NCBI GenBank assembly: GCA_965215365.1
Contig: CBDCDS010000003.1
Span: 96,001 to 160,000, forward strand
DNA length: 64,000 nt
Reading direction: 5' to 3'
Source: Gammaproteobacteria bacterium
GTDB taxonomy: Bacteria; Pseudomonadota; Gammaproteobacteria; Eutrophobiales; Eutrophobiaceae
Each line of letters opens with the position of its first letter. Within the stretch, counting starts at the first letter, position 1. This document shows, piece by piece, positions 772 to 40,920 of the stretch. The notes beneath the pieces are model-generated. The model did no database searches and was not told the DNA's origin. It saw nothing but the letters and a program-made list of their open reading frames with translations. A program made the translations under genes and the position numbers.

Positions 772-801
772 ATTGTCTATTATCACACGGGGGTGGATTG
801 C

Positions 802-1194
802 ATGAGTTTTCAGCGTATCGGCGGCGTTAAAACGGGTAGTGGCGGGCAGCGATTGCCATTCTGTCAGGCGGTCAGGGCGGGAGATTATGTGTATGTCTCA
901 GGCCAGGTAGCCATGGATGGGCGCGGTGAGATTATTGAGGGAGGGATCGTGCCGCAAGCCCACCAGACCATTGACAATGTCGTTGCCATCCTGAAGCAGG
1001 CCGAGTGTACTCTCGCAGACGTGGTAAAAGTCAATGTCTGGCTGGATGATACCAGGGATTTTCAAGCATTTAATCGCGTCTATGCCGACTATTTCGGTGA
1101 CCACCCGCCCGCCCGTTCCTGTGTACAATCCCGGCTCATGGTCGATGCAAAAGTAGAGCTGGATGTTATTGCCTACAAGCCCATGACAAAGTAG
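802..1194 (+). CDS. RidA/YjgF/UK114 family enamine/imine deaminase
   Basis: YVYVSGQV, VVKVNVWL, FNRVYADYF, PARSCV, VELDVIAY motifs. Confidence 0.9.
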   Translation: MSFQRIGGVKTGSGGQRLPFCQAVRAGDYVYVSGQVAMDGRGEIIEGGIVPQAHQTIDNVVAILKQAECTLADVVKVNVWLDDTRDFQAFNRVYADYFGDHPPARSCVQSRLMVDAKVELDVIAYKPMTK

Positions 1195-1198
1195 CTCA

Positions 1199-2374
1199 AT
1201 GAGTTACTCGGTCTATACGTACCCCTGGAATTTTACTGCGGATAATTACCGGCGCCGGCTGGATGACATTCAAGCCCTGGGCTTGCAGGGCATCAATCTG
1301 GCTGCGAGTTACCATGCTGGCAAGTTTATTCACCCCGGCGGCGTGCGCGGTCGTGTTTATTTCCCCGAGGACGGTGTGCTTTATTTCAAGCCACGCGCGG
1401 ATTATGGGCGCATCCGACCGGTCGCCAGCAGCCTGCTCGAAGATATTGACATTTTCGCACTGCTAGGTGGCGTTGACGGCTTGCCACTGAATGCCTGGAC
1501 GGTTTTGTTGCACAACACCCGGCTGGGTCTGCAATACCCGCAGGCAACGGTCAGGAATGCTTTTGGGGACGCCTACGTCTATAGCTTGTGTCCGGCCCAT
1601 CCCGAGGTGCGCGCGTATGCCGTGGCCCTGTGCCAAGACCTTGCCGCGCATTATCCGGTCAATAGCCTGCTGCTCGAGACCCCGGGTTACATGGCCTATC
1701 ACCATGGCTACCACCATGAATTTGCACAGGTATCCCCCAACACCTGGCTGGAGGCGCAGCTGGCGTTGTGTTTTTGCGAGCACTGTCTGGTTGGGGCCGA
1801 CCGAGTCGGCATCGACGGCGCGCGCTTGCGGGGAATGATCGCAGCGGCTATTGACGACTACCTGGACGGCAGTCAGGTCAACGGCCGCAGCAGCGCGTTG
1901 ACCTGGTTGGAAAATGATGTCCCTGAGCAGGCCGAGCTCGAGGCCTTTCTGGCTTGGCGCTGTGAGGTGGTGACGTCCTTGATCAGGGAAATTCGCGCAC
2001 GAGTGCGCCCGGAAGTGAACGTCAAGGTTATCACGACCACACAACCGTCGCATGCTACCAGCGTGCTGGAGGGCCATGACCTGCCGGCGTTGCAAGCCGC
2101 CGCTGACGGCCTGGAGGCGCCGTTGTATCAGTCATCGCCGGTAGCCTGCAAAGCAGAGGCTGAACAGGTGCTGAAGCAGGTCGGCACAGCAGCCTCCCTC
2201 AGCGTTATACTGCGGCCAGGCTGGCCGGATATGCATAGTGAACAGCAGCTTGTCGAAACACTGGCCGGCGCTGAGGCGCTGGGACTTCGGGATATCAATT
2301 TTTATAACTACGACATGCTGCGACCGCGGTACTTGCAGTGGTTGGAAAATGCGCTGAAGGGTGCCTCTAATTAA
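1199..2374 (+). CDS. Hypothetical glycoside-hydrolase-like TIM-barrel protein
   Basis: 391 aa; LAASYHAG, LCPAHPEVR, CFCEHC motifs; operonic spacing. Confidence 0.6.
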   Translation: MSYSVYTYPWNFTADNYRRRLDDIQALGLQGINLAASYHAGKFIHPGGVRGRVYFPEDGVLYFKPRADYGRIRPVASSLLEDIDIFALLGGVDGLPLNAWTVLLHNTRLGLQYPQATVRNAFGDAYVYSLCPAHPEVRAYAVALCQDLAAHYPVNSLLLETPGYMAYHHGYHHEFAQVSPNTWLEAQLALCFCEHCLVGADRVGIDGARLRGMIAAAIDDYLDGSQVNGRSSALTWLENDVPEQAELEAFLAWRCEVVTSLIREIRARVRPEVNVKVITTTQPSHATSVLEGHDLPALQAAADGLEAPLYQSSPVACKAEAEQVLKQVGTAASLSVILRPGWPDMHSEQQLVETLAGAEALGLRDINFYNYDMLRPRYLQWLENALKGASN

Positions 2375-2385
2375 TAGAGGTGACC
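2359..2385. repeat. Short palindromic repeat GGGTGCCTCTAATTAATAGAGGTGACC
   Basis: Recurs at 33684-33718 and 34195-34225; supplies the TAA of the upstream gene. Confidence 0.75.
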
Positions 2386-2404
2386 ATAAATCGGAGGCAA
2401 ACTG

Positions 2405-3193
2405 ATGGAGGGTTATCGTTTTGACGACAAAATCGTGCTGGTTACCGGTGCCGCCGGGGGGGTAGGCCAGGGCTTGTGCCGATATTTTTGCGAGCGTGGC
2501 GCCAGCGTACTGGCGCAGGATAGAAACCACGCGTTATTGCAGCAGTTGGTTGACGAGTTGGGGGAAAATTGTACCTCGGTAGCTGCCGACGTGACCGATC
2601 TGCCGGCATTAAGGAAGGCCGTCGCGGCTGCGACGGACCGGGTCGGCGCGGTTGACATTCTGTTGAACAATGCCGGGGGCGCCTCTGCGACCGCCCTTGC
2701 CAACCTGACTCCGGAAGCATGGCAGCATGACCTGAATCTCAACCTGACCGGCGCTTACCACTGTGTCGAGACGGTCAAAGAGGCCATGTTTGCGCGCGCT
2801 CGGGGAGTGATTATCAATATCGGCTCCGTCAATTCACTCTCCACCCTCGGGCACCCTGCCTACAGCGCCGCCAAGGCGGGCCTGAGCAGCTACACCAAAG
2901 CGCTCGCCGTCGAGTATGGCAGCAAGGGAATCCGGGCAAACCTGCTGAATCTGGGCACCGTCAAAACCCAGGCATGGAACGAGCGATTGGCCAGGAACCC
3001 TAGAATCTTTGAAGAATTGAAGAAATGGTATCCCTTGAGAAACTTCGCAGAGCCGCAGGATGTGGCTGCCGTTTGCGGCTTCCTGGCCTCGCCGGATGCG
3101 CGCTACATCACCGGCGCCATCATTCCTGTCGATGCCGGTCTGACTGCCGGCAATACCGTGCTGGCCGCGGCGCTGACGCTTGAGGAATTTTAG
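2405..3193 (+). CDS. SDR family oxidoreductase (candidate N-acetylhexosamine dehydrogenase)
   Basis: TGAAGGVG, NNAG, YSAAK catalytic motif. Confidence 0.9.
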   Translation: MEGYRFDDKIVLVTGAAGGVGQGLCRYFCERGASVLAQDRNHALLQQLVDELGENCTSVAADVTDLPALRKAVAAATDRVGAVDILLNNAGGASATALANLTPEAWQHDLNLNLTGAYHCVETVKEAMFARARGVIINIGSVNSLSTLGHPAYSAAKAGLSSYTKALAVEYGSKGIRANLLNLGTVKTQAWNERLARNPRIFEELKKWYPLRNFAEPQDVAAVCGFLASPDARYITGAIIPVDAGLTAGNTVLAAALTLEEF

Positions 3194-3329
3194 CCCGCAG
3201 ATCTCACCAAGACCAGCGCGGGCGCATCAAGCGCAGTGGGTTAGGTGGAAAGAGCAGCAGTATTACCATAACTTATTGATAGCAATTATGTTTCACAAAG
3301 CAACAAGCGACTTGGTGGGATCTGCGGGC
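3193..3329 (+). mobile_element. Internally deleted MITE copy (137 bp)
   Basis: Both terminal inverted repeats present (GCCCGCAGATCTCACC ... GGTGGGATCTGCGGGC); middle deleted at ACCAAG microhomology. Confidence 0.85.
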
Positions 3330-4634
3330 CAGGTGACGCTGACTCTGGAGCCGCTGCTGTCAGCCCCCTTGGAGGCAGGCACCAAAGGGCTTCCGTGCGC
3401 TGCCTCCGGGATAATGTTAGCGGAGGTCCCGGAACGTAACTGGAACCTGCTGCAAGGCTGCATCCCACTGCCTAGCGCCGTGCTCAAACAGCGGGTGCTG
3501 GAGCATAACGCCAAGTGGATGCAGGATTTTCAGGCACGCGCCGGCTTGTTGCTGGCGCCACATGGAAAAACCACCATGGCACCACAGTTGTTTGACTTAC
3601 AGCTGCGCCATGGCGCCTGGGGCATTACGGTGGCAACGGTGCAGCAGCTGCAGGTTTGTCGCCGGTTCGGTGTGCAACGCGTACTGATGGCGAATCAGTT
3701 GCTATCGAGCAACGATATTGCCTATGTGGCCGCGGAGCTGCGCCGGGATCAGGCGTTTGAATTTTATTGTCTGGTCGATTCTGTCGCCGGTGCAGAGCGC
3801 CTGCAACGGCATTTGGAATACGCCGGCGCCGCGCCGCCATTGCGTACATTGGTGGAGGTGGGCATGGTCGGTGGGCGCACGGGATGCCGCACGGCGCACG
3901 CGGCAATCCGGGTCGCGCAGCGTATCGCCACGCTGTCCCGGCTCTCCCTGCACGGGGTGGAGTGTTATGAGGGTATCATCGCCACCGGCGACCCGGCGCA
4001 AGACGAACAAGCGATTACGGCCTTGCTCGAACGCGCGCTGGATGTTTACCATGCCTGCAAAACGCAGCAGTTATTTGCCGATCAACACTGTGTGCTGCTC
4101 AGTGCCGGCGGCTCAGCCTGGTTTGATGTGGTGGCTGCTACATTTGGCCGTGTGCGCGACGAGACAGTCCGGGTCATTGTCCGTAGCGGTTGCTATCTGC
4201 CGCATGATTCATTGTTCTACCAGCGCCATTTCCAGGGCTTGCGGGCGCGGCGCCAGACACAGGCCGAGCCGGAAGATGCTCTCAAGCCGGCTCTGGAGGT
4301 CTGGGCCAGTGTGCAGTCGGTGCCGGAGCCGCAGCTGGCGGTGCTCAGTGTGGGCAAACGCGATGTGTCCCACGACCTGGAACTTCCCGTGGTGGAAAAG
4401 TGGTTCCGTCCCGGGGTGTCCGCAGCGCCGGCGCCGCTGACGGGGAGCGCAACCATCCGGGCGCTGCATGATCAGCACGCCTGTCTGCATTTTTCCGGGG
4501 GAACCGATCTGGCTGTAGGTGACATGCTCGCCCTGGGTGTGTCTCATCCCTGTACGACCTTCGATAAATGGCAGTTGCTGTGGCTGGTGGATGACGACTA
4601 TAACGTTACCGGCGGCATACGCACGTTCTTCTGA
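3288..4634 (+). CDS. PLP fold-III D-serine dehydratase-like amino acid deaminase (candidate hexosaminate ammonia-lyase)
   Basis: APHGKTTM PLP lysine, GGRTGCR, CYEG, SAGGS, RSGCY, HDQH, SHPCTTFDKW; start is ATG 3288 (inside MITE) or GTG 3333. Confidence 0.85.
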   Translation: MFHKATSDLVGSAGQVTLTLEPLLSAPLEAGTKGLPCAASGIMLAEVPERNWNLLQGCIPLPSAVLKQRVLEHNAKWMQDFQARAGLLLAPHGKTTMAPQLFDLQLRHGAWGITVATVQQLQVCRRFGVQRVLMANQLLSSNDIAYVAAELRRDQAFEFYCLVDSVAGAERLQRHLEYAGAAPPLRTLVEVGMVGGRTGCRTAHAAIRVAQRIATLSRLSLHGVECYEGIIATGDPAQDEQAITALLERALDVYHACKTQQLFADQHCVLLSAGGSAWFDVVAATFGRVRDETVRVIVRSGCYLPHDSLFYQRHFQGLRARRQTQAEPEDALKPALEVWASVQSVPEPQLAVLSVGKRDVSHDLELPVVEKWFRPGVSAAPAPLTGSATIRALHDQHACLHFSGGTDLAVGDMLALGVSHPCTTFDKWQLLWLVDDDYNVTGGIRTFF

Positions 4635-4643
4635 GTCACTGAC

Positions 4644-6146
4644 ATGTCTCAGTGCCATGATGTTACTATGCCGCAACGCTATGATCTGGTATTGCGTGGC
4701 GGCGAGCTCATAGACGGCAGTGGTGCCGCCCGCTCCCGTGCCGATGTCGCGGTGTGCGATGATCGAATCGCACATGTCGGCCGGCTGCACCGGCCGGATG
4801 CCGCGCGGATACTTGATATCAGCGGCAAGATTATCTGCCCGGGTTTTATTGATGTGCACACCCATGACGACCGGGCCTGTATCGACACCCCAGCCATGCG
4901 CCCCAAAACTAGCCAGGGGGTGACCACGGTGGTGGTTGGTAATTGCGGCCTCAGTCTGGCGCCGTTGATGGGCGCGGGCCGCCTGCCGGAGCCGTTGAAT
5001 CTGCTGGGCGAGGAGTCGGCATTTGAATTTGGCAATTTTCAAGACTATGTCGATGCCGTGAAACAAGCAAAACCAGCAGTCAACGTGCGGGCGCTGACAG
5101 GGCATTCGACCTTGCGCGTGGCGGTCATGCGCGAACTTGATAAAAAGGCCACCGCGCGCGAGCTTGACTCCATGTTGAAACTTCTTGATGACGCCCTAGA
5201 TGCCGGCGCCGCCGGCCTTAGCAGCGGCGTATTCTATCCGCCAGGCAGCGCCGCCGACCTAGAAGAGCTGGCAGCCCTGGCAGGACTCGTAGGGGAGAAA
5301 CAAGGAGTCTATGCGGTGCATCTGCGTGATGAATATGATCGGGTGCTCGAAGCTATGCAGGAGGCGGTGGACACCGCGCGCACGGGTCGGGTTCCCATGG
5401 TCATTTCCCATCACAAATGCGCTGGCGTGCAGAACTGGGGCAGAACGGCTGAGACCCTGGCGCTGCTTGATACGGCATCGCAGCAACAGGCCATCAACAT
5501 CGACTGCTACCCCTATACCGCCGGTTCCAGCGTGCTTGCTCCCGAACTGGTGGACGGCAGGATAAAAATTCTGGTCACCTGGTCGGCCGCCCAGCCTGAG
5601 CTGGGCGGGCGCTATCTTGATGATATTGCGGCACACTGGCGATGCAGCCAACAGCAGGCTGCCGAACGCCTGATGCCCGGTGGCGCCTGCTATTTTCAGA
5701 TGCACGAAGATGATGTGCGCAGAGTACTGCAACACCCGTCCTGCATGGTCGGCTCGGATGGTTTGCCGAACGATCCGCGCCCCCATCCCCGGTTGTGGGG
5801 AACGTTTCCCCGGGTGTTGGGACATTACGTGCGTGATGAAGGGTTGCTGCCGTTGGAGACGGCCATCCACAAGATGAGCGGTTTGTCGGCCTCGGTATTC
5901 AACATTTCGGCGCGGGGTCTGGTGCGGCCGGGTGCCTATGCTGACCTGGTAGTGTTTGATGCGGAAAAAATCCGTGACAACGCAACCTACGAAGCGCCAT
6001 GCGTAGCGGCCAGTGGAATCGACCATGTTCTGGTGAATGGCGAATTCGTACTGGACCAGGGAGAGGCAACCGGCCGCCGCGCCGGCCGATTTATCTCGCA
6101 TAAAGAAGGCGCGCATGCGGGTTTAGAGATTTCTGAAAGTTCTTGA
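4644..6146 (+). CDS. N-acyl-D-amino-acid deacylase (D-aminoacylase)
   Basis: PGFIDVHTHDD, GVTTVVVGNCG, HLRDE, SHHK, GSDG, PHPRLWGTFPRVLG. Confidence 0.9.
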   Translation: MSQCHDVTMPQRYDLVLRGGELIDGSGAARSRADVAVCDDRIAHVGRLHRPDAARILDISGKIICPGFIDVHTHDDRACIDTPAMRPKTSQGVTTVVVGNCGLSLAPLMGAGRLPEPLNLLGEESAFEFGNFQDYVDAVKQAKPAVNVRALTGHSTLRVAVMRELDKKATARELDSMLKLLDDALDAGAAGLSSGVFYPPGSAADLEELAALAGLVGEKQGVYAVHLRDEYDRVLEAMQEAVDTARTGRVPMVISHHKCAGVQNWGRTAETLALLDTASQQQAINIDCYPYTAGSSVLAPELVDGRIKILVTWSAAQPELGGRYLDDIAAHWRCSQQQAAERLMPGGACYFQMHEDDVRRVLQHPSCMVGSDGLPNDPRPHPRLWGTFPRVLGHYVRDEGLLPLETAIHKMSGLSASVFNISARGLVRPGAYADLVVFDAEKIRDNATYEAPCVAASGIDHVLVNGEFVLDQGEATGRRAGRFISHKEGAHAGLEISESS

Positions 6147-6156
6147 GGAGAATACT

Positions 6157-7782
6157 ATGATGATGAAAAAACTGTTCCAATGCTGCATCGGCCTGGTGTT
6201 ATTATCGGCGCTGTCGGAGGTGGCGCCGGCCGCGCAGCCTGAGCTTACAGTGATTCCACAACCACTGTCCTGGCAACCGACTCCGGCTGCGTTCACAATC
6301 GATGCCGGCACCACCGTAATTGCCACTGAAGACGCAGCGGCGTCGGCTTCCTGGCTTGCCCGACAGCTGCGTCAAGTCACCGGTTTTGAATTGCCCGTCC
6401 GGCGCGCCAAGGCTGCGGGTGATTCCGGCGCGCTCAGTTTGCGGCTGTTAGCGCCGCCGTCACAGCAGCCGGAGCTGGGCAAGGAGGGTTACCGCCTGCT
6501 GGTGGAAAATGGCCGGATAGAGATCTCCGCCAACGCGCCGGCAGGTCTGTTTTACGGTGTGCAGACACTGCTGCAGATGCTGCCTCCGGCCATTTACGCG
6601 CGGCAAGCCCGTTCCTTCAGCCCGGACGAACTTGCTATTGCCGGCATTGCGATAACGGACCGCCCCAGGTTCGGTTGGAGGGGGCTGATGATCGATGTCT
6701 CCCGTCACTTTTTCTCCAAGGAACAATTATTCAAAACCCTTGACGCCATGGCCATGCACAAACTCAATGTGCTCCATCTGCATCTGACAGATGACCCGGG
6801 TTGGCGTCTGGAAATTGATCAGTATCCGAAACTTGTCGATGTGGGTGCGGTCGGCGATATGTCCAATCCCGAGGGTCCGGCCCGGTGGTATTTTTCAAAA
6901 GATGAAATGCGCGAGATTATCGAGTATGCCAGACAGCGCCATATCAGGGTGGTGCCCGAGATCGATATGCCGGGTCACGCCTTGGCCGCGGCCAAGGCGT
7001 ATCCGCAATTTTTCGACGGCTACAAAACCTTCAATCCCGGCAACAAGGATACCTACGAATTTGTCAGAAACATTTTAACCGAAGTGATGGAGCTGTTTCC
7101 CTCCGGCTACCTCCACTTCGGCGGCGATGAGGTCAGAGACCATCGCTGGGCCGAACTGCCCGAGATTGCCGCCCTCATGCAGGAACATGGTTTTACCGAC
7201 CTGCATGAAGTAGAAGGGTATTTTGACCGTTTTGTCGCGGACTTCATCGTCGAGCAGGGCTACACGCCCATCGGTTGGGACGAAGTGGTTAATTTTGACG
7301 TCAATCCGGCGACGGTGGTGCAATGGTGGTTGCATCTTCGGCCCGAGACGCTGGACCTTGCTATCAAGAAGGGTCATCAGGTCATCATCTCGCCCACCAA
7401 CTACCTGTATTTCGACTATCCCAACTACGTGGGAGAGCCGGGCGCCCCCTGGGAAGGGAACGAAAACGGCCCCAATTCGGTGGAGCTGATTTACCAGTGG
7501 GAACCGGTCCCCGATACCTGGACGTCCGCGCAGGAAGCGCAAGTCCTGGGGCTGCAAGCCAACCTGTGGACGGAGTTGATCAAAACCAACGAGTATTATG
7601 AATACATGATCTTTCCCAGGTTATCTTCTTTGGCAGAAATAGCCTGGAGCCCAAAAGGGGACAAAGATCTGGAGGGTTTCCAGCGCCGCATCGAAATTCA
7701 GTGTCAACGCTATGAGGCAATGGGGCTCAACTACCGCAAGTACGAACAATGGCCCAGTGACTTCAGGTACATGAGACACTGA
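6157..7782 (+). CDS. GH20 beta-N-acetylhexosaminidase, secreted
   Basis: Signal peptide; WRGLMIDVSRHF, HLHLTDD, PEIDMPGH, HFGGDE catalytic motif. Confidence 0.93.
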   Translation: MMMKKLFQCCIGLVLLSALSEVAPAAQPELTVIPQPLSWQPTPAAFTIDAGTTVIATEDAAASASWLARQLRQVTGFELPVRRAKAAGDSGALSLRLLAPPSQQPELGKEGYRLLVENGRIEISANAPAGLFYGVQTLLQMLPPAIYARQARSFSPDELAIAGIAITDRPRFGWRGLMIDVSRHFFSKEQLFKTLDAMAMHKLNVLHLHLTDDPGWRLEIDQYPKLVDVGAVGDMSNPEGPARWYFSKDEMREIIEYARQRHIRVVPEIDMPGHALAAAKAYPQFFDGYKTFNPGNKDTYEFVRNILTEVMELFPSGYLHFGGDEVRDHRWAELPEIAALMQEHGFTDLHEVEGYFDRFVADFIVEQGYTPIGWDEVVNFDVNPATVVQWWLHLRPETLDLAIKKGHQVIISPTNYLYFDYPNYVGEPGAPWEGNENGPNSVELIYQWEPVPDTWTSAQEAQVLGLQANLWTELIKTNEYYEYMIFPRLSSLAEIAWSPKGDKDLEGFQRRIEIQCQRYEAMGLNYRKYEQWPSDFRYMRH

Positions 7783-7816
7783 TAGGCGCCTGCCTGATAA
7801 CGCGGCCACACATTAC

Positions 7817-8443
7817 TCAAGCAGTCAGGCTGTCGCGGCAGGCGGCGACTAGCGTGGCCGCCGCCGCGCTGAGCTCAGCTAAGGATTTACCTGGCTTGTA
7901 GAGTGCCGAGCCGATACCAAATCCGTTGGTGCCGTGGCGCACATACTCCTTCATGTTGGCGCTGTTGATACCGCCCACCGCACACAAGGGAAACTGCGCC
8001 GGCAGCACGGCGCGCACAGCCTTAACGGCAGCCGGCGGCAGCAGCTCGGCCGGGAACAGTTTTGCTGCATCAGCGCCCGTTGCGAGGGCCGTCAGGAGCT
8101 CCGATGGCGTCAGGCTGCCCGGCATGGAGACCATGTTCAAGCGTTTTGTTGCGGCAATGACTGCCGGATTGGTATTGGGAGAGACTACCAGCTGCGCGCC
8201 GGCCTGATGCACGGCGCTGACCTCAGTGGCACTCAGTACCGTGCCGGCGCCAATCAGCGCCTTGTTGGCATAGTTTTTTGCCAACAGCTGAATTGAGGCG
8301 CAGGCGTCAGGGGAGTTCAACGGCACTTCCATCATTACTATGCCCACTTCCAGCAGCGTCTCAGCGACAGGTAGCGCCTCAGCCGGCGTGATGCCGCGCA
8401 AGATGGCAATTAACGGCAGAGTTTTCATATAATCATTGAGCAT
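7817..8443 (-). CDS. dgoA: 2-dehydro-3-deoxy-6-phosphogalactonate aldolase
   Basis: PLIAILRG, EVPLNSP, GAGTV, KLFPAE, AVGGI, FGIGSALYKPG. Confidence 0.9.
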   Translation of the reverse strand: MLNDYMKTLPLIAILRGITPAEALPVAETLLEVGIVMMEVPLNSPDACASIQLLAKNYANKALIGAGTVLSATEVSAVHQAGAQLVVSPNTNPAVIAATKRLNMVSMPGSLTPSELLTALATGADAAKLFPAELLPPAAVKAVRAVLPAQFPLCAVGGINSANMKEYVRHGTNGFGIGSALYKPGKSLAELSAAAATLVAACRDSLTA

Positions 8444-8495
8444 TTTTTATAACCTGCTTACATGTGGTGACCTGAGCGGCGCGCCAGTTTCCATA

Positions 8496-9222
8496 GCCCG
8501 CAGATCTCACCGAGTGATGCGAAGATCGCGCCGGATTGGTTCTGCCTGCGGGTGCCTGCGCCCGAAAGCATAGCGGTAGCTATGGTTGAGGAAGCACGTG
8601 CCCGCAGGCAGAACCAAGACCAGCGAGGGCGCATCAAGCGCAGTGTGTCAGGTGGAAAGAGTAGCAGTATTACCATCACTTATTGAGAGCAATTATGTTT
8701 CACAAGGCAACAAGCGACTGGGTGAGATCTGCGGGTTAGCCCGCAGATCTCACCGAGTGATGCGAAGATCGCGCCGGATTGGTTCTGCCTGCGGGTGCCT
8801 GCGCCCGAAAGCATAGCGGTAGCTATGGTTGAACAAGCACGTGCCCGCAGGCAGAACCAAGACCAGCGAGGGCGCATCAAGCGCAGTGTGTCAGGTGGAA
8901 AGAGTAGCAGTATGATCATCACTTATTGAGAACCATCATGTTTCATAAGACGACAAGCGACTGGGTGAGATCTGCGGGTTAGCCCGCAGATCTCACCGAG
9001 TGATGCGAAGATCGCGCCGGATTGGTTCTGCCTGCGGGTGCCTGCGCCCGAAAGCATAGCGGTAGCTATGGTTGAGGAAGCACGTGCCCGCAGGCAGAAC
9101 CAAGACCAGCGAGGGCGCATCAAGCGCAGTGGGTTATGCGGAAAGAGCAGCAGTATGATCATCACTTATTGAGAACCATCATGTTTCATAAGACGACAAG
9201 CGACTGGGTGAGATATGCGGGT
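8496..9222 (+). mobile_element. Three tandem 241-bp MITE copies (8496-8736, 8739-8979, 8982-9222) separated by TA
   Basis: 243-bp period; TIR RCCCGCAKATCTCACC; internal 17-bp inverted repeat (8536-8552 / 8601-8617). Confidence 0.95.
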
Positions 9223-10110
9223 TAGCCCTTGTATCGACGCCTGCTCCGACGTGACGGACCAGGTGGGAATGTCAAATAAGGCAAACGCCTGCTCATACTG
9301 GCGCAACAGCGACCGGCTGCCAACCAGTGTGACGCCCTGCTTAACCGGGCAAAGCTCTAAGCCGGCGCCGATTTCCGCGCCGATTAACAAGCCGGACAGG
9401 TAGCTGGCATGGGTGCCGCAAAGTGATTCTTGCGTCAGCAGGCGCGACCGGATGGAGAACACATGGTGGGCAAATCCCCCCGGTTTTTTGCTGACGCGAA
9501 TCCCTTCTTCAAAGGCATCCGCAGCAAAATCCTCGTGCCGGATTATTGCTCGCACGGAGGCCGCGCGTCTGATTGAGGCAAACAGTTCGCCGGTCAGGAA
9601 CGTGGCAAAGTCGCGGATCGTAGCGCCGTCGTAACGCACCCACTTGCTGTGGGTGCCGGGCAAACACACTATGTCGCCACCGGCCGTTGCTGCCGTTCCC
9701 AGAACCTGGGTTTCCTCGCCGCGCATCACGTCCGTAAACGCCAGACTACCACAGCTCAGGCCGGGGACAATGAACGTCGGGTGGTCCTGCATATCGGGAA
9801 CCCGCACCAGATGTTTACCCAGATCGTCAACCGTAGCCGGACACTTCAGGTAGTTGGTCTCAACCCAGCCCTCGCGGCTGCCGACCATGCCGGACATAAA
9901 CACCGGCAGGCCCGGCGCATGTTCAAGCCAGCTACCGCAGGCATCGTATAAAACACTGGCAAAGCCACCTTGCTGTACCTTGAATATACCGTGGTCGTTG
10001 TCCGTTTGCGCGCGCACCGCTCCATCCGCAGCGAGCAGGTACGCCCGGAAGTGGCTTGAGCCCCAATCTACCGCCACCATGGCTGCATCCCCCGACATAA
10101 TTGCTGCCAT
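9166..10110 (-). CDS. dgoK: 2-dehydro-3-deoxygalactonokinase with C-terminus replaced by MITE sequence
   Basis: VDWGSSHFRA, SGMVGSREGW, DVMRGEETQ, PGTHSKW, FLTGELF, YLSGLLIGAE; RBS GGGAGG before ATG 10110. Confidence 0.9.
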   Translation of the reverse strand: MAAIMSGDAAMVAVDWGSSHFRAYLLAADGAVRAQTDNDHGIFKVQQGGFASVLYDACGSWLEHAPGLPVFMSGMVGSREGWVETNYLKCPATVDDLGKHLVRVPDMQDHPTFIVPGLSCGSLAFTDVMRGEETQVLGTAATAGGDIVCLPGTHSKWVRYDGATIRDFATFLTGELFASIRRAASVRAIIRHEDFAADAFEEGIRVSKKPGGFAHHVFSIRSRLLTQESLCGTHASYLSGLLIGAEIGAGLELCPVKQGVTLVGSRSLLRQYEQAFALFDIPTWSVTSEQASIQGLTRISHPVACRLMKHDGSQ

Positions 10111-10838: not shown

Positions 10839-10928
10839 TGATTTTTAAGTGCAATAATAAATTACATTTTTGGACAGCGCTCTGCTATGCTTGCTGCCGT
10901 GCAGGGTCAAGCTCTGGGGGATTGCGCC

Positions 10929-13157
10929 ATGTTCAGATACATATTCGGCTGTGTGGGCCGTTGCTTGGGGGCGCGCCTGCCGGCGCCTGTGCGATGGGTT
11001 CTGCCACTACTGTTTCTGGTGGCGCCGCCAGCCTTTGCACAAACCGAACGCGCGCCGTCTTTTCCCCCTGGCACCGAAATCGGTGAGCTGGTTTTCAAAA
11101 AAGGTGTGCCCACAGGCGACATTGTCCTGCCGTCAGCCAGGGGGGGTGATGTTGATCCTGCAATCAATAACGGTGAACTCAGCGATTACAGCTTCGATCC
11201 GGCAAAATTACCGCCCGGCCTGGACTTTAACCGATTTACCCGCATCCTCAGCGGCACACCGAAATATACCATGCAGAAGCGAACCTATCATTTGTGGGTG
11301 CACGACGATGACGAGAACTGGTCGAGGTCTGATGCAGATTCCCTGCATTTCAGTATTGAAGTCATGGATGACAAGCAACAAACCGCCGTAAACAGCGTTG
11401 AACAGGCCGCTAAAGAAGAGGTCGCAAGTGCGCCGGCCAGGTTTGCCGCCGATTGACGATTACATCTACTATCAGCAGCAGGACTTGAAGAGGTCGCAAG
11501 TGCGCCGGCCAGGTTTGCCGCCTCCTTCGAATCCGAATTCCAATGGTTCAATAAGGATAAAAGACCCGGACTGTCAGGGGCAACTACATGGAACAGTACC
11601 GTTTGGCGCGGAGAACGCATACAGAAGCACATCCTGGTGACGCGCGCATCATCACGCGACAGGATTTCCATCAGCGCCGGTGATTTTGAAAGCCCGGCGG
11701 GCGTTATCCCGGCTGAGGCGTTGACGTTTCGCTATCCGCAATTTGTCAAGGGCGATATTGAGGCGCGTGATTGTGAAGGCTACCCGCAGCGCGCCGAAGC
11801 CGTATTTCTGTCCGACGCGTTGTTTCCACAACAGCCGCGACGGCAGGCGGGTTCCTATCCGGTCATGATCTGGGCGTCAATCGATATACCGGCGGACTCC
11901 CGACCCGGCGAGTATGTCGGCAATATTACCGTGAGTGCAACGTCAGGAGAGCAGCAAACCCTGCAGGTGGCATTGCGTGTGACACTATGGGCTATGCCCT
12001 CTCAACGACCGTTCCATTTGGACCTCTGGCAATTTCCCGTATCCGTGCTGGACCGTTACAACGATGCCAACGCAAGAAAGATAAAAGTCTGGTCTGAGCA
12101 ACACTATGCATTGTTGGAACCCACCTACCGCTATCTCGCAGAATTAGGCCAGCGCACTGTTACCACCTATATCAAGGAAGGCGCGTTTGCCGCGCCGTCA
12201 ATGATCCGCTGGATTGCCTTAGAGGGCGGCACGCGCTGGGATTATGACTACGCTGTGTTTGATGCACATGTCGAGCGTCTTGCCGAATGGGGTATTGATG
12301 ACCAAATCAGCGCGTTCTCCCCGATAGGGTGGAACAAGGATGAGCTGCCCTTTTGGGATGCAGCCACCGGCGCCAGTAAAGTATTCAAGTACAGTATAGG
12401 CTCAAAAGAATATAACGCCTTGTGGAACCACTTTCTCACCGATTTCAGAAAACATCTGGTTGAAAAAGGCTGGTTTGAAAAAACCGTGCTGTATATGGAT
12501 GAGGTGCCCAAAGAAGAAATGGAGTCGGTCATCGGTCTGATTCGCTTCAATGACAAGGATTGGAAAATCGGTCTGACCTACGGCCATGCCCCGGGAGTTA
12601 ACGTCATCGCCAGTCTGTATGACGTATCCGGATACTACGAAAGCGAAATTGAAGTACAGACGTACCCGGGGCAGGTCACCACGTTTTACACCAGTTGCTC
12701 GCTCCAACGCCCGAACAACTACGTGGCCGCCGATGCCAATCCGGCGGACATGACGGCCATGCCCTAGTATGCCATGTACCGGGGACACGACGGTTATTTA
12801 CGCTGGGCCTTCGACAACTGGAAGTCTTATGAGCCGCTGGACTTGCAGGAGGGCTCGTTTACAGCAGGCGATTTTTCCTTCGTTTACCGAAGCAGCAACG
12901 ACAAGGATATGACCATGATACCCAGCGTCAGGTCGGAACTGCTGCGGGACGGCATTGAGGATTATGAAAAGGCGCTGACACTGTACAAGACGATGCTGAA
13001 ATGCAAAAAAGAGGATTTACTGAGCGGTCTGGAGGAGACGATCAACACTTTTTCAACCGAGCGGTTGCTGGCCGGACAGGCGAGTGAGCTGATCATCCAG
13101 GCGCGTAGGCAACTGCATGAACTATCACAATCGACAACGCCTGACCTGTGTCAATAG
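10929..13157 (+). pseudogene. Ig-like domain + GH123/DUF4091 beta-N-acetylgalactosaminidase-like gene with two in-frame stops
   Basis: ORFs 10887, 11637 and 12774 share one frame; signal peptide, LPPGLDFN..LSGTP Ig motif, WRGER, FHLDLWQ, YMDE, GYLRWAFDNW, LRDGIEDYEK; stops TGA 11454 and TAG 12765. Confidence 0.85.
11415..11522 (+). repeat. Perfect 36-bp direct repeats (11415-11450, 11487-11522) around a 36-bp unique insert
   Basis: GAAGAGGTCGCAAGTGCGCCGGCCAGGTTTGCCGCC twice; flanking bases differ on both sides. Confidence 0.95.
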
Positions 13158-14451: not shown

Positions 14452-14543
14452 TCTGAAAAACATTTTGAAAACTTATTGCATTTTTATGGCGGCTGGTTTA
14501 GCATCGGCATAGAAGATTTGATTTAGCGTTGGGGGACGTGGTT

Positions 14544-16973
14544 ATGAGCAAATTTTTGACGAGGGGTGATCTGCATCATCGGCGAGTCCGGGGGCGGATA
14601 TCATCTGCGTTATTATTGTTAAGCTGTTGTCCGAACCTGATACTCAAAAATCTAGGCGTGAGCTTGCCGTGGGTTTTTCTGCTGCTGTTCCTTGTTGTCC
14701 CGCAAGCTTTTGCGCAAACCATCACACTCACGGCAACGGCCGGGCAGGGCCGGGTGGAGTTATCCTGGACACGAATAACCGGGGCAGGAGGGTACGATCT
14801 GTATTTTTGCGAGGGTGCCACCTGTACCGTCCCCACCTCCTCATTCCGCTACCCCCGGTTTGTCGCCGGTCATACCGAGGCGCGCAGTTGCAGCGTGGAT
14901 TACCAGCAAGAGAATACAACCGCTTACCTGTCCGATGCGCTGTTTGCCAAGCCGCCCCGGGCATTGCCGCCGCGGTGGCCCGAGCTGGTGTGGATGGCGG
15001 TGGATATCCCTGCCGACACTCCCGCCGGAGACTACTCCGGTACGGTGACTGTCAGCGCAGTCTCGGCAGAGACTACCACTGCCATGACCACGCTTGAGGT
15101 CTCGATTCAGGTTGTCCCGTGGACTCTGCCCGATGCAGAAAACCGGCAGTTCCACTTGGACTTGTGGCAGTTCCCCGTGTCCGTGCTGGATCGGTATAAC
15201 GATGCCAATCCGGATGACCTCATAGAGCTCTGGTCTGAGGCGCATTACGCCTTGCTGGAGCCCACCTACCGTTATCTGGCCGGCCTCGGCCAGCGCACCG
15301 TGACCACCTACATCAAAGAAGGCGCGCTGGGCGCGCCGTCCATGATTCAGTGGACGCTCAAGAGAGACGGCAGTTGGGAATACGATTATTCAGTATTTGA
15401 TACCTATGTGGAACGTCTTGCCGGCTGGGGGATCGATCGGCAGATCAGTGCATTCTCTCCGTTAGGCTGGAACAAAGGTGAGGTCCCCTATTGGGACGAG
15501 GCCAGTCAAAGCAAGATAACCTTCAGCGCCGAGGTAGGGTCCGCTGACTGGAATGAGCGCTGGGAGCATTTTCTGACGGATTTCCGGGCGCACCTGTTGG
15601 AAGAAGGATGGCTCGATAGAACGGTCATCTATTTGGACGAATCTTCCGCGGCAGAGGTGCAGGCCGTGCTCGATCTGGTAGGGAGTATTGATGATAACTG
15701 GAAAGTCGGGTCGGCTTATATCGGTTCCGGGCAGGACGGCCCCGGCGCAAGCATTCTCAGCAAGCTGTATGACGCTTCGGGTTCATTGGAGTACCGGTCT
15801 GCCATCGGCAGAACTTATGTGGACACCGGGCTGGTAACGGGCGAAACCTACCGCTATGCAGTGGATGCTGCCGCAGGTCCCGGCAACGCCAGCGCTCTTT
15901 CTTCCCCCGTTACGCTGGTGGCGCAGGTCCCCGCCGTGCCGGGACCACCCACCGACTTGACGGCGCTGAACATGTCGGGCGGAATTCAGTTGAACTGGAC
16001 CGAGCCCGCAGCAACCGGCAGCAGCGCTCTGACTGGCCATAACATTTATCGCTGCATCGATGTTGGCACTTCCTGTGCGCCGGCCTGGTTTGACAGTGTG
16101 ATCTCCGGCGCCACCTACACCGACTCCGATGTAACGGCGAGTACGAGCTATCGTTATACGGTGGAAGCCTGTAACGCCACCGGGGGCGGGAACCATTCCG
16201 GCGAGATAGCGGCGACGAGTGAGGTTACGGTCAATGTGCAGCCGAGTGACTCCCGTGATACAGCCGGAACCGGCGCAACGCCGCAAGCTCAGTCAGCGCC
16301 GACTGTGCCGACCGGTGTGACGGCGTTTGCCGCAAGCGCCACGGCAATTCAACTCGGCTGGGAGGGGAGCGCCGCCGCCGGCTTTGACGTGTACCGTTGC
16401 GTCGGGTCGCAGACCTGCACGCCTGACATCTATCTGGGCTGGGCTTATGCGGATAACCATGTCCCCGACCCGGCGCGGATAAGCACGTTCTACACAAGTT
16501 GCGCGCAACCGCGCCCGAACAGCTTCGTCGCTGCCAACGCAGATCCGACAGACCTGTCCGCGCTGCCCTGGCATGCGCTGCAAAGACGCCGGGACGGCTA
16601 CCTGCGTTGGGCGTTTGACAACTGGAGAGTTCCTGAGCCGCTGGACCTGCGTGAAGGGGCCTTTACCGCCGGGGATTACTCACTGGTTTACCGGAGCAGC
16701 AATGACAGGAGCATGACAGTCGTGCCCAGTATTCGTGCGGAGCTGTTGCGCGCCGGCATTGAAGACTTTGAGAAGGTGCAGGTATTACGTAACAGCTTGT
16801 CGGACTGCGCGGCGGACGAACTCGCCGGCAGGTGGCTGGAGCGGCTGGAGATGACGGTGGATACCTTCTCTGCCGCGCCGCTGGTGGCCGGCCGGGCCGC
16901 TGACCTCATCCGTCAGGCGCATAACCGGCTTGATGAAATCTCCTTGCAACTGACGCCGGACCGGTGTCGGTAG
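14544..16973 (+). CDS. Chimeric secreted protein: GH123/DUF4091-like domain interleaved with fibronectin type III domains
   Basis: Clear similarity to 11637-13157 paralog (FHLDLWQFPVSVLDRYNDAN, YLDE, GYLRWAFDNW) with FN3 segments at about 14720-14843 and 15800-16450. Confidence 0.85.
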   Translation: MSKFLTRGDLHHRRVRGRISSALLLLSCCPNLILKNLGVSLPWVFLLLFLVVPQAFAQTITLTATAGQGRVELSWTRITGAGGYDLYFCEGATCTVPTSSFRYPRFVAGHTEARSCSVDYQQENTTAYLSDALFAKPPRALPPRWPELVWMAVDIPADTPAGDYSGTVTVSAVSAETTTAMTTLEVSIQVVPWTLPDAENRQFHLDLWQFPVSVLDRYNDANPDDLIELWSEAHYALLEPTYRYLAGLGQRTVTTYIKEGALGAPSMIQWTLKRDGSWEYDYSVFDTYVERLAGWGIDRQISAFSPLGWNKGEVPYWDEASQSKITFSAEVGSADWNERWEHFLTDFRAHLLEEGWLDRTVIYLDESSAAEVQAVLDLVGSIDDNWKVGSAYIGSGQDGPGASILSKLYDASGSLEYRSAIGRTYVDTGLVTGETYRYAVDAAAGPGNASALSSPVTLVAQVPAVPGPPTDLTALNMSGGIQLNWTEPAATGSSALTGHNIYRCIDVGTSCAPAWFDSVISGATYTDSDVTASTSYRYTVEACNATGGGNHSGEIAATSEVTVNVQPSDSRDTAGTGATPQAQSAPTVPTGVTAFAASATAIQLGWEGSAAAGFDVYRCVGSQTCTPDIYLGWAYADNHVPDPARISTFYTSCAQPRPNSFVAANADPTDLSALPWHALQRRRDGYLRWAFDNWRVPEPLDLREGAFTAGDYSLVYRSSNDRSMTVVPSIRAELLRAGIEDFEKVQVLRNSLSDCAADELAGRWLERLEMTVDTFSAAPLVAGRAADLIRQAHNRLDEISLQLTPDRCR

Positions 16974-16991: not shown

Positions 16992-19900
16992 ATGAAAAAT
17001 ACTTTGTCCGTACTGTCACTGTTTCTGCTCTTTTTAAGCGCACAACAAGCTCATACTCACATGCCCCAGGCACCGTCGGATTTGACTGCAACGTCGGTCG
17101 ACAATGGTATCCGGCTGAGCTGGACGGCGCCGCCCAATCCCGGCGAAATAGCGGGTTACACCATCTATCGTTGTGAGGAAGGTGAGACGCCCTGCACGCC
17201 GACATTGATTAAATGGGTGGCGCATCCCGGAGATACGCCCCCACCGCCAACTTCATACACCGATGGCGGTGTTGCGGTCGTGGATGGCGTTATGATTGGG
17301 CTGGTCGCAGGCACAACCTACCGCTATCAGGTCACTGCAAGTTACACTATGGATTATCATGAAAGTTTCAGATCCAACGCAGTCACAGTACTGGCAGAGG
17401 GTGGCGCCGACCCGGCGCCTGAGCCTGAGCCCGAGTCTTCGATGTACCCCCCGGCGCCACCAACCGGGCTTACGGCAACACCCGGTGTGGACAGTATCGA
17501 CCTGAGCTGGAATGCCCCGTCCGATGATATAGCAGGCTACAGTATCTACCGCTGTGAGGAAGGCGAGACACCCTGCCAGCCAGAGTGGATTGCCTGGGTC
17601 GCGAACGAGGGTGATGTTCCCCCGGCGCCAACCTCATACACCGATGGCGGCGCGGCGGTCGTGGACGGCGTTATGGTCGGGCTGGTTGCAGGCACAACCT
17701 ACCGCTATGCCGTGACCTCAAACAATGTTGACAGCGCTGGCGACTATTATGAAAGTGACGACCGGTCTGAGGAAGTCACGGCGCTGGCAGCAGGTGATAC
17801 CGAACCGGAACCAGAACCCGAGCCCAAACCGGAACCAGAACCAGAACCAGAACCAGAACCGGCGAAGCCGGCAGTGACTCCCGAAGAAAAACAGGCGGCC
17901 CTGGAAGATGTCTCCGCCACTATGGGTCGTAATATGTTATCCGGCATTGTTACCACCATCGGTAACCGTTTTACCGCAGCGCCGGATGCTTCAAAATTTT
18001 CCTTGGCCGGCCGGCAGATGACCCTTGATGACTTGGCCGCGCGCGGGCGCGTGCTGGTACTGCACTCGGAAGATGACGATTACGAAGAGCAGGGTTTCAG
18101 CCTGTCGGCCGGCTTGCAACCGTATCGCGACGGCACCGGGTTGTCCCTGTCGGTAGCCCCGCGCTGGGGCGGCTCGGCCGCAGGCACAGCCGCCATGCTG
18201 TCCCCCGAGGGGTCCGGATTGTACAGCCGGAGCATTGCAGCACAGCGGCGCCGAGGCTCACTGCACACGGCGCTGAGCTACGGTTTTGCGAAACCGGAGA
18301 CAGGCGGCGTCACCACCCCGTTTGCGGAATTTGATGTGACCGATGGCGCCGGTTACAGGGCGAGACTGGGTACTCGCTACCAGTTGTCAGCCGCCGGTAA
18401 TACGTTAAAGCTGGAACTCTCGTCCGACCTCACGACAATGCCCACCCATGCGGCTGCGGCTGCCGACGACAGCCCGGCGCACGAGGTATGGCTGACGGCT
18501 GCCTTGCAGGGGCGCCCCTTTACATCCTCAGACGGGCGCCGCCGACGCGCGGGCCGGATCCTGGCGCAGGCGGATAGCGTCGATAGCACGACCACTAACC
18601 CGCAGCCGGACGAAGCCGCTGAGGACACAGTGGAAATAGAGGAAATCCGCGTCATCGGCAGCAGGTTTCAACGCAGCCTCAGCGATGCGCTGGATGAAAA
18701 ACGCCGGGCTGATGAGATTATCGAAGCGCTGTCGGCTGAGGATATCGGCGCGCTGCCGGATACCAGCGTGGCGGAATCCCTGGCCAAACTGCCCGGTGTT
18801 TCATATACACGCAATGCTTTCGGCGCCAATAACCTTTCCATTCGCGGCCTGGGCGCGGTATTAACCAACGGCACTTTGAATGGCCGCGACCTTGCCAGCG
18901 AATGGGGCGACAGAAGTGTATCCTTCAACATGTTTCCCGCCGAGTTGATAGCCCGCGCCAGTTTATACAAGGCGCCAGCTGCGAGTCACGTGGAGGGTGG
19001 TATCGGTGGCACCTTGAACCTGCGCACGGCCCGCGCCCTGGAGTGGGGCGAACGCTATGTCGTAGCCAATGTGCGCGGCCGCTACAACGACCTGGCTGGC
19101 GACCTCCCGGACAGCGAGGAGTTCGGTTATCGCGGCAGCGTTGCCTACCTTGATCAGTTTGCCAATGATACCGTTGGCATTGCCATCGGCTATGCCGGGC
19201 AATACGCCCCGCTGGTCGGCGCTGACTCGCAGATCTACGAATCGAGAACAGTCGGGTTTGGTGGCGCCATTGATGGCATCCCGGCAGGCGTCGGCGCCAC
19301 CAACGATTTCAATATCCCTTATGGAGCCGAATACAGCTTTTTCAGCGGTGCCAGTGAGCGCCATTCGGTTCTGGGCGCCATTCAATGGCAGCCCGTTGAG
19401 AATTTCGAGATTAACATCGACGCGTTCTTTTCCGCATTCGAGCAGAGTAACAGCGGCGCTGGTCTGCGGCTGGCCGGCGGCCTGGGTTCATTTGGTAACA
19501 GGTGGAGCAACGTGCAGACGGACGGTTTTAATGTTGCCGGAGCAACTGTAGCCTGTCTGCATGATGAGCAGCCCAACAACTGCGCCGATCGAGGTTGGGG
19601 GCAGGACCTCGGCGCATTTAACGCGCGTGATGACGGTGACAGTACATTGCACAGCTATGGCATCGAAGGTCAATGGTCTGCCGGCGCGCTGACACTGGTG
19701 TATGATTTTTCCTGGTCCAAAGCGGAGGGTGAAGATGCCTATACCACCGTTGGTTATCGGCCCTATAACGGCATGCCGGATGCACTCGAACTGGTGCGGC
19801 CGGTTGCAACTTTCGGAGAAAATGATGCAGGTGCTGCCTTTCTGACCTCGCCGCTGGATTTTACCGATCTGGCCACCAACCGGATCGATGCTTTGCGTCT

Positions 19901-39986: not shown

Positions 39987-40093
39987 TGTCAGAATTACCG
40001 GTGAAATGTGACTGAGAGTTGCAAGTCAGTCATTATATATGATATATCTGATAAAAGTGTAGCAGGTAACTTGAAGACAAGGTTTATGCAGAC

Positions 40094-40900: not shown

Positions 40901-40920
40901 GGTCAGGGCCCCGACTCGCC

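Follow-up and report, generated by a model that had tools for sequence, protein, structure and literature searches.

The closest described counterpart of the genes considered here is the ong cluster of Pseudoalteromonas prydzensis ACAM 620, which serves the catabolism of oxidised chitin (N-acetylglucosaminate, GlcNAc1A) and which comprises OngA (glycoside hydrolase family 20, GH20), OngB (a putative D-aminoacylase), OngC (a fold-type III pyridoxal phosphate (PLP) 'D-amino acid deaminase'), OngD (RidA), the kinase KdgK, the regulator OngR (RpiR/MurR), an SSS transporter and TonB-dependent receptors (Jiang et al. 2022, PMC9537276). As reported in the same paper, OngB deacetylates GlcNAc1A, OngC converts glucosaminate (GlcN1A) into 2-keto-3-deoxygluconate (KDG) and ammonia, and KdgK phosphorylates KDG; the ong genes are all required for growth on GlcNAc1A, which is abolished by ongD and kdgK knockouts, and kdgK belongs to the ong clusters, joined by kdgA in Vibrio, Klebsiella and Serratia (PMC9537276). 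Here we analysed a 64,000-nucleotide stretch of DNA, referred to as the window, from a member of the Eutrophobiaceae (Gammaproteobacteria bacterium, assembly GCA_965215365.1, contig CBDCDS010000003.1, positions 96,001 to 160,000), in which an operon within 802..10110 lies next to dgoK and dgoA. Because this operon holds the same four enzyme families as ong, its type of pathway is already known, and what is left to ask is which epimer it acts on. We regard it as very probable that the module breaks down an N-acetyl-2-amino-aldonic acid, and as probable that this acid has the galacto configuration; the whole scheme, in which the module would be the galacto counterpart of the ong pathway and would begin with the oxidation of N-acetylgalactosamine (GalNAc) by a short-chain dehydrogenase/reductase (SDR), we put at roughly 55%.

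Mucins, glycosphingolipids, chondroitin and many polysaccharides of microbial origin contain GalNAc as a major sugar, and the phosphorylative GalNAc (Aga) pathway of Proteobacteria, reportedly set out by Leyn et al. in 2012, employs AgaK or the phosphotransferase system (PTS), AgaA, AgaS and the kinase and aldolase of tagatose-6-phosphate. The ong paper describes GalNAc catabolism as initiated by phosphorylation (PMC9537276). No description of an oxidative or non-phosphorylative GalNAc route was found in the literature searched, most subscription journals and the supplements of PMC9537276 lying outside its scope, and the accessible parts of PMC5507952 and PMC13260240 do not describe one; a different, phosphorylated glucosaminate route has been proposed in archaea (PMC12343721), and the supplementary data of PMC9537276, which list ong clusters of terrestrial bacteria, could include clusters of the DgoK type. 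The initial annotation of this DNA had taken the pathway type to be undescribed beyond glucosaminate, a view overtaken by the N-acetyl gluco version, built from the same four families and published in 2022 and 2025, and it had proposed a logic of deacetylation followed by PLP-dependent beta-elimination and RidA action that is experimentally established for the homologous enzyme types of ong (PMC9537276). The locus probably represents a galacto variant of a known pathway type, and this galacto version appears undescribed.

In the proposed route, GH123 and GH20 enzymes would release GalNAc outside the cell or in the periplasm, and after uptake the SDR would oxidise it at C1 in the cytoplasm, the lactone then opening spontaneously or with enzymatic assistance. 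A D-aminoacylase-like deacetylase (DAA), by homology to OngB, would deacetylate N-acetyl-D-galactosaminate to D-galactosaminate, from which a fold-type III PLP enzyme (hereafter the PLP enzyme), by homology to OngC, would eliminate the C3 hydroxyl and the amino group, and RidA, by homology to OngD, would hydrolyse the enamine/imine to 2-keto-3-deoxy-D-galactonate (KDGal) and ammonia. DgoK and DgoA would turn KDGal into pyruvate plus glyceraldehyde 3-phosphate (GAP), the same pair serving a De Ley-Doudoroff-type galactose route 27 kb away, and a glycoside hydrolase (GH)-like barrel protein (hereafter the TIM protein) would have its place in the upper, sugar-to-acid part of the module.

At the family level the likeness to ong lies in a GH20 with a signal peptide, a D-aminoacylase-like subtype-V amidohydrolase with Cys/His/His/Asp, a fold-III PLP deaminase and RidA, in an RpiR regulator, a nearby TonB-dependent receptor and an SSS transporter (here in congeners), and in an order of events where deacetylation and deamination come before phosphorylation of the 2-keto-3-deoxy acid. 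Unlike ong, which has a PfkB-type KdgK and KdgA, the window has a DGOK kinase and a DgoA aldolase, adds the SDR and the TIM protein, and lies in a genome without lytic polysaccharide monooxygenase (LPMO) and GH18 genes; its presumed substrate would be the C4 epimer, produced intracellularly by a dehydrogenase rather than extracellularly by an LPMO. With the De Ley-Doudoroff pathway the scheme would share the start (sugar 1-dehydrogenase, lactone, acid) and the conversion of KDGal via 2-keto-3-deoxy-6-phosphogalactonate (KDPGal) to pyruvate and GAP by DGOK and DgoA members, whereas the 2-keto-3-deoxy acid would arise through PLP-dependent ammonia elimination after deacetylation, with no galactonate dehydratase step. 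With the Aga pathway it would share the presumed nutrient and the losses of acetate and ammonia, but in the module a phosphorylation would not precede deacetylation and deamination, and a tagatose-6-phosphate branch would be lacking.

Kinase, aldolase and the choice of epimer

An open reading frame (ORF) listing and profile scans recovered every gene named in the initial annotation, at the positions it gave and in an operon converging on dgoK-dgoA. On the plus strand the operon opens with the OngD-like, RidA-family enamine/imine deaminase gene (802..1194; PF01042 106.8 bits, TIGR00004 111.8 bits with a cut-off of 106.25), whose ATG at 802 follows a ribosome-binding-like run (GGGGGTGG), with GTG at 793 as the alternative start, and whose product is 76-82% identical in four congeners and 77% in Niveispirillum (L006). 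It continues with the genes for the cytoplasmic TIM protein of 391 aa with its GH-like (beta/alpha)8 barrel (1199..2374; GHL10 21.8 bits, below the cut-off of 27.9), the classical SDR oxidoreductase (2405..3193; PF13561 189.5 bits, NF005474 337.5 bits with a cut-off of 361), the OngC-like, D-serine-dehydratase-like PLP enzyme (3333..4634; PF14031 64.9 bits and PF01168), the OngB-like DAA (4644..6146; PF07969 138 bits) and a secreted GH20 beta-N-acetylhexosaminidase (6157..7782; PF00728 365.4 bits, PF02838 94.5 bits), with intergenic gaps of 4, 30, about 0 to 140 (according to which start of the PLP enzyme is taken), 9 and 10 bases. Convergent with these genes, the minus strand carries dgoA (2-dehydro-3-deoxy-6-phosphogalactonate aldolase; 7817..8443) and dgoK (2-dehydro-3-deoxygalactonokinase; 9166..10110). 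The base composition of the region is unremarkable, and the gene arrangement is beyond chance, the five-gene core being kept in order in four congeners and five distant genomes.

DgoK, starting at the ATG at 10110 after GGAGGA, is a full-length DGOK member (PF05035 291.4 bits) whose only solved relatives, 3t69 (164.7 bits) and 3r1x (148.9 bits), are both annotated as 2-oxo-3-deoxygalactonate kinases, and DgoA (NF006600 254.5 bits, cut-off 207) scores 155.8 bits with the E. coli KDPGal aldolase 2v81 versus 73.3 bits with the E. coli aldolase for 2-keto-3-deoxy-6-phosphogluconate (KDPG) 1eua, and stays below the eda model (TIGR01182 140 bits, cut-off 156). From these family assignments we infer that the pair is specific for the galacto (C4) configuration. 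In the genome (2.73 Mb, 97.6% complete) dgoA is the sole PF01081 aldolase gene and dgoK the sole DGOK-family gene; the four PfkB matches above cut-off resemble ribokinase, HldE and two nucleoside-kinase-like proteins, and PfkB and PF01081 profile searches of this 97.6%-complete sequence found neither a KdgK-type kinase nor a second KDPG-type aldolase. KDG would therefore be left without an evident kinase or aldolase, and the placing of DgoK and DgoA at the end of the pathway in the initial annotation has no KdgK or Eda alternative in the whole genome.

This genome content bears directly on the idea that the module is an ordinary ong-type gluco cluster, taking GlcNAc or GlcNAc1A to KDG, and that dgoKA lie beside it only to serve galactose and galactan genes. 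The four shared families with a nearby RpiR regulator and TonB-dependent receptor would fit such a cluster (PMC9537276), as would a dgoKA pair convergent with the operon and a galactose oxidative set needing DgoK and DgoA within the same window, but the missing kinase and aldolase speak against it, as do the co-directional dgoK-dgoA of three of four congeners and the adjacent genes of Lysobacter, Niveispirillum, Undibacterium and Burkholderiales loci described below. Moreover, LPMO_10 (PF03067) and GH18 (PF00704) had no match in the genome, and oxidised chitin is an unlikely substrate because there is neither an AA10 LPMO nor a GH18 chitinase. GlcNAc, in turn, probably has a route of its own, since a separate nagB set lies 1.3 Mb from the module (L104, G000:C3:1400082-1405428), where nagB (278.5 bits, cut-off 236.9) is accompanied by a BadF/BadG-type sugar kinase, a PIG-L-family deacetylase, two MFS transporters and FucU; this plausibly constitutes a non-canonical route for GlcNAc that dispenses with a deacetylase of the nagA type, nagA (TIGR00221) and agaS (TIGR02815) having no match in the genome. 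The absence of nagA, nagB, aga and PTS genes noted in the initial annotation thus holds for the window, where none of these families was found among the 49 ORFs of at least 100 aa that were scanned (13 without a Pfam match), and fails for the genome because of this nagB. Together with a DAA pocket differing from that of P. prydzensis OngB (PpOngB) at three of five specificity positions, these findings make the gluco explanation improbable.

Gene order elsewhere points in the same direction. Alignment of the PLP enzyme retrieved at least 80 loci from other taxa, all at most 51% identical among the matches listed, and in 32 of the 80 listed loci a DAA gene adjoins the PLP enzyme gene. DGOK is present in 10 of these 32, versus 1 of the 48 listed loci with the PLP enzyme and no DAA, and in three of four congeners, in line with the earlier expectation that homologous clusters would keep company with dgoKA rather than kdgK/eda; tblastn with the four PfkB proteins of the genome, a weak search in that the queries are not KdgK, matched only L076, which has no DAA, and 40 residues in L061. 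Four of five examined genomes whose cluster has no adjacent DGOK carry DGOK elsewhere.

In three of the four congener loci fetched (L096, L097, L098) the order is RidA-TIM-SDR-PLP-DAA-(SSS)-DgoK-DgoA in one direction, a Lysobacter locus (L040) has SDR-PLP-RpiR-DAA-DgoK-DgoA, and in Niveispirillum (L006) the five-gene core is followed by a TonB-dependent receptor gene, GH20, DgoK and DgoA. Two Undibacterium loci (L013, L018) read DGOK-RidA-TIM-SDR-MFS-PLP-DAA, with DGOK identified by Pfam at 142.8 and 137.5 bits, and five Burkholderiales loci have either DgoA-DgoK-RidA-ABC transporter-PLP-RpiR-DAA or DAA-DgoK-DgoA. As the arrangements differ between lineages, the linkage to DgoK/DgoA arose or was kept independently. 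An RpiR gene stands between the PLP enzyme and DAA genes in 25 of the 80 listed loci, and the RpiR/MurR-family regulator of the window (OngR family; 21350..22264, plus strand; PF01418 and PF01380) has a copy of 67% identity beside the module in congener L098 and one of 49% in L006.

Deacetylase and PLP enzyme

The DAA gave PDB matches to AfDam (1m7j, 499.9 bits), KleDacyl (9g5m, 499.2 bits), BbDam (3gip, 463.1 bits) and PpOngB (9kb1, 436.4 bits). With deacylases of N-acyl-D-amino acids it has in common the fold, the catalytic Asp, the ligands of the metal and the conserved residues that anchor the carboxylate and acetamido groups: in the HMMER alignment C101, H226, H256 and D372 correspond to C96, H220, H250 and D366 of AfDam, the PpOngB equivalents being C97, H222, H252 and D368 according to PMC12017989. 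The same paper reports the structure of PpOngB with substrate and names the residues that set its specificity (Wang et al. 2025, PMC12017989), and we mapped the pocket of the DAA onto PpOngB through the AfDam alignment and the equivalences stated there. At the five specificity positions the DAA has F197, A260, S296, D304 and Q352, PpOngB has A193, A256, S292, Q298 and G348, and AfDam has F191, M254, T290, L298 and M346 (PMC12017989). Two of the five positions therefore match PpOngB and three differ (F/A/S/D/Q in the DAA, unlike A/A/S/Q/G in OngB), so that the pocket is not of the OngB sugar type, and from the hydrophobic pocket of AfDam only F is retained, the rest being A, S, D and Q, so that it is not that of EC 3.5.1.81 either.

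Judged from this alignment, the DAA pocket is polar and resembles that of a sugar-acid enzyme, distinct from that of OngB. The pattern F/Y-E-A-G-S-(S/T)-D-Q is common to 34 of 35 aligned PLP-linked DAA homologues, with T at the D position in L024, and as a sequence signature it marks a third specificity class, from which alone the epimer cannot be named. By homology to OngB and from its context we propose the DAA as an N-acetyl-D-galactosaminate deacetylase. The PLP enzyme, which carries PHGKT and SHPCTTFD motifs that are invariant in the alignment of homologues, is correspondingly proposed as a D-galactosaminate ammonia-lyase giving KDGal, its stereochemistry being read from the module. Its long ORF spans 3180-4634 with in-frame starts at TTG 3180, ATG 3288 and GTG 3333, of which the GTG (433 aa) is the likely start because the homologues measure 429-433 aa.

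The highest DAA scores belong to proven D-acylases (PMC12149444), the nearest PDB entry of the PLP enzyme (3gwq, 332.7 bits) is annotated 'D-serine deaminase', and OngC also deaminates D-Ser and D-Thr according to PMC9537276, all of which would suit enzymes for ordinary N-acyl-D-amino acids and D-amino acids. Such a function would, however, leave no role for DgoK, DgoA, the SDR, the TIM protein and GH20, although they are co-operonic in several lineages, and it is at odds with the replacement of the hydrophobic M254, L298 and M346 of AfDam by A, D and Q; unlike deacylases of N-acyl-D-amino acids, the DAA has a polar side-chain pocket (A260, S296, D304, Q352) and stands in a context of sugar-acid catabolism. 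We consider D-amino acids as the true substrates very improbable.

Entry into the module

The SDR of the operon is 74-81% identical in the congeners, where it invariably adjoins the TIM gene, and reaches 195 bits with the glucose 1-dehydrogenase subfamily NF005559, under the cut-off of 215. We infer that it acts as a GalNAc 1-dehydrogenase because oxidation is the sole missing step, because Burkholderiales versions without the SDR carry an ABC importer instead, and because the SDR always adjoins the TIM gene.

To the TIM protein the initial annotation had assigned no role, and its fold proved to be GH-like. No PDB sequence matched it at E<=1; its AF2 model (pLDDT 91.2) superposes on Cwp19 (VIA Z 26.2, root-mean-square deviation (rmsd) 3.0, 288 aligned) and the C-terminal domain of PgaB (VIA Z 23.8, rmsd 3.6, 314 aligned), with a Foldseek E of 1e-12, and on GH42 beta-galactosidases (Z about 21). 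Its CxCxxC motif (C191/C193/C196) is conserved, E160 is invariant, and E306 occurs in at least 90% of the aligned sequences; Thermus GH42 enzymes bind zinc through a comparable Cys cluster. There are 845 homologues at E<=0.001, and among the best 120 of these 845 every named one is a 'hypothetical protein' and 18 have a precomputed PF02638 match. The exact sequence had no ESM Atlas match, and a homologue (P0159) fell into unnamed clusters whose nearest named relatives are of the GHL10/GH42 type (scores 0.90-0.92). The gene is present in five of the 22 further genomes of the genus that were examined, the fifth match lying on a 1.8-kb contig (G007) and the other four being the loci fetched, and in none of 18 genomes outside the genus; it recurs, at 35% identity, in only 2 of 400 genomes sampled from the phylum, again beside PLP enzyme and RidA homologues. 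A lactonase of a known fold was considered and rejected, no amidohydrolase or beta-propeller match being found and the fold being glycosidase-like. Since it co-occurs with the SDR, the TIM protein may belong to the sugar-to-acid upper half of the module as a possible lactonase, and by its modelled fold a cytoplasmic glycosidase is the other candidate function.

In the two distant loci (L107:5518-15077 and L108) the TIM homologue (35%), a PLP enzyme (34%) and RidA are grouped, and the Pfam-scanned L107 also carries two GFO/IDH/MocA oxidoreductases, two xylose-isomerase-like barrels, an AspA/AstE-type deacylase, Amidohydro_2 and sugar ABC transporters. By analogy, modules of this type may represent another amino-sugar oxidative pathway built partly of non-homologous families.

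The fold of the TIM protein (Cwp19, PgaB and GH42 matches), for which no signal peptide was found, raises a further possibility, namely that a galacto amino-sugar acid does feed DgoK/DgoA while the module starts from something other than free GalNAc acted on by the SDR: a small GalNAc or GalN glycoside could be imported and cut by the TIM protein, or a pre-formed sugar acid taken up, with the SDR and the TIM protein performing other steps. The Burkholderiales versions without SDR and TIM genes have a dipeptide-type ABC transporter, which suggests direct import of the acid, and the distant TIM homologues (35%) stand beside the PLP enzyme and RidA with other oxidoreductases, the AspA-type deacylase and Amidohydro_2. 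We nevertheless hold such an entry to be unlikely, because the SDR and TIM genes are together and adjacent in all 10 loci with a TIM identity of at least 40%, as fits a two-step conversion of sugar to acid, and because SDRs are common sugar 1-dehydrogenases, the score for the glucose 1-dehydrogenase subfamily coming near its cut-off.

Set against the proposed GalNAc scheme as a whole are several further observations. The stereochemistry of the substrate is deduced from the kinase and aldolase families and from context, and the adjacency of dgoKA in this genome taken by itself is weak, since the nearby galactose route also needs the pair, which here is convergent and not co-transcribed with the operon. 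In one congener (L095) other sugar genes come after the five-gene core and dgoKA is absent from the 20 kb around it, and 22 of the 32 listed loci with the PLP enzyme and the DAA have no DGOK within the fetched DNA, an observation that also counts for a D-amino acid function. The DAA scores nearer to proven N-acetyl-D-amino-acid acylases (AfDam and KleDacyl, about 500 bits) than to PpOngB (436.4 bits), and its pocket pattern does not split DGOK-linked from other loci, in a set without a KdgK-linked comparison. No close relative of the SDR is characterised, the nearest PDB entry being an unnamed SDR (5tt0, 251.6 bits), and the TIM protein, with its glycosidase-like fold rather than a known lactonase fold, is left unexplained in the scheme. 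Within the operon no inner-membrane transporter was found, the only paralogue in this genome of the congeners' SSS being the SSS of the galactose set, at 26% identity, and the reading frame of the first GH123 gene is interrupted.

Surroundings and significance of the module

The glycosidases are less tightly bound to the module than the initial annotation had it. The GH20, with its signal-peptide-like N-terminus, is in the operon only in this genome and absent from the four congener modules, although a GH20 of 27% identity lies beside DgoK-DgoA in L006, and GH123 is likewise not conserved with the module. Both GH123-like genes reported earlier are present, but the first (10887..13157, plus strand; Ig-like N-terminus; PF05345, PF22680 and PF13320 on three pieces) is interrupted within one frame by TGA 11454-11456 and TAG 12765-12767, leaving stop-to-stop ORFs at 10842-11456, 11457-12767 and 12768-13157, and is probably a pseudogene of recent date, if not the product of a sequencing error. 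It is separated by an AAA_14/DUF4143 ATPase gene (13163-14347, minus strand) from the intact GH123-like gene (14529..16973, plus strand; PF13320 175.7 bits, PF22680 and the fn3 domain PF00041), whose product is a candidate beta-N-acetylgalactosaminidase and which lies directly upstream of a TonB-dependent receptor gene of the Xanth-Caul type (16992..21227, plus strand; TIGR01782 525.4 bits over residues 550-1411). The link between GH123 and the module is suggestive context rather than conserved linkage. The receptor (1411 aa) has an unusual architecture, with about 550 extra N-terminal residues including two fn3 domains and a Pro-rich stretch before the plug.

The surroundings are rich in galacto functions, with the two GH123 genes, a GH53 galactanase gene, two GH2 genes further downstream and a galactose oxidative set at 36800..42693 (GntR, SMP30 lactonase, SSS symporter, XylB-like SDR and an IlvD/Edd-family dehydratase). 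The GH53 ORF (742 aa, 22144-24372, by Pfam) has an N-terminal region of about 420 aa without a Pfam match, and its true start is probably later because the longest ORF and the end of the RpiR gene have 120 bases in common. The galactose set matches NCBIfam models (NF009560 954 bits; L-arabinonate dehydratase 522 bits and XylB-like 268 bits, both below cut-off) and is De Ley-Doudoroff-like with the IlvD/Edd-family dehydratase replacing an enolase-type DgoD; lacking its own kinase and aldolase, it must share the single dgoK/dgoA 27 kb away. Its GntR and SSS are 60% identical to the products of genes flanking the Lysobacter module (L040).

A dispersed 243-bp repeat occurs in three tandem copies between dgoA and dgoK (8494..9228; TRF period 243, 3.0 copies, 96% matches) and as a partial copy of about 136 bp between the SDR and PLP enzyme genes (3193..3328; blastn C3:99193-99328, 83.8% over 136 bp). 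Genome-wide it has 180 blastn matches, 48 of them of at least 200 bp, often in tandem runs of 2-3, and it contains an internal inverted repeat. The closing codons of dgoK and its stop come from the last copy, the DGOK profile ending at residue 346 of the 361-aa long ORF, and the partial copy provides the upstream ATG (3288) and TTG (3180) of the PLP enzyme ORF, with the spurious N-terminal extension MFHKATSD.... The repeat looks like a miniature inverted-repeat transposable element or a repetitive extragenic palindrome (MITE/REP-like) and may affect the expression of both units.

A shared operator upstream of RidA and of dgoK/GH123, consisting of inverted ACTAC...GTAGT pairs at 726-761 and 10762-10828, was considered and dropped: with 47 and 31 copies of the half-sites in the window, chance alone would give about 1.5 such pairs, and the two spacings differ (36 versus 67). 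Scans of 500-10900 gave 6 promoter-like sites versus 5.0 +/- 2.4 in shuffles and 16 terminator-like sites versus 9.4 +/- 3.1, both uninformative. At 54000-56000 the GC content falls to 0.47 versus about 0.58, over an N6/N4 DNA methylase gene (54181-55203) and an unannotated ORF, and this stretch may be a small restriction-modification island.

Fucose, galactose and GalNAc are typical sugars of mucins and glycolipids. In congeners L095-L097 (for example L097:1624-8892) a set of the L-fucose oxidative type, with an aldo-keto reductase, an Amidohydro_2 lactonase, a UxaA-like dehydratase, an SDR, an FAA hydrolase, an FMN-dependent dehydrogenase and an IclR regulator, lies beside the module. The genus appears to favour oxidative routes for fucose, galactose and, probably, GalNAc.

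The novelty of the system is a more tentative matter than the scheme itself, and we give it slightly less than an even chance that this would be the first GalNAc route starting by oxidation, with three new activities (GalNAc 1-dehydrogenase, N-acetyl-D-galactosaminate deacetylase and D-galactosaminate ammonia-lyase) and a new cytoplasmic GH-like family that travels with amino-sugar-acid modules and is maybe the first GH-barrel lactonase, in a module found in Gamma-, Beta- and Alphaproteobacteria. The TIM protein in any case offers a separate, tractable target. If the scheme is true, it would give functions to widespread genes that at present go by the labels 'D-serine dehydratase', 'D-aminoacylase' and 'hypothetical protein', and would explain why DgoK and DgoA stand beside such genes in Burkholderiales, Lysobacter, Niveispirillum and the uncultured source lineage. 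It would also mean that the D-aminoacylase scaffold has diversified for sugar acids a second time, and would provide a compact route of seven enzymes from GalNAc to pyruvate and GAP for engineering.

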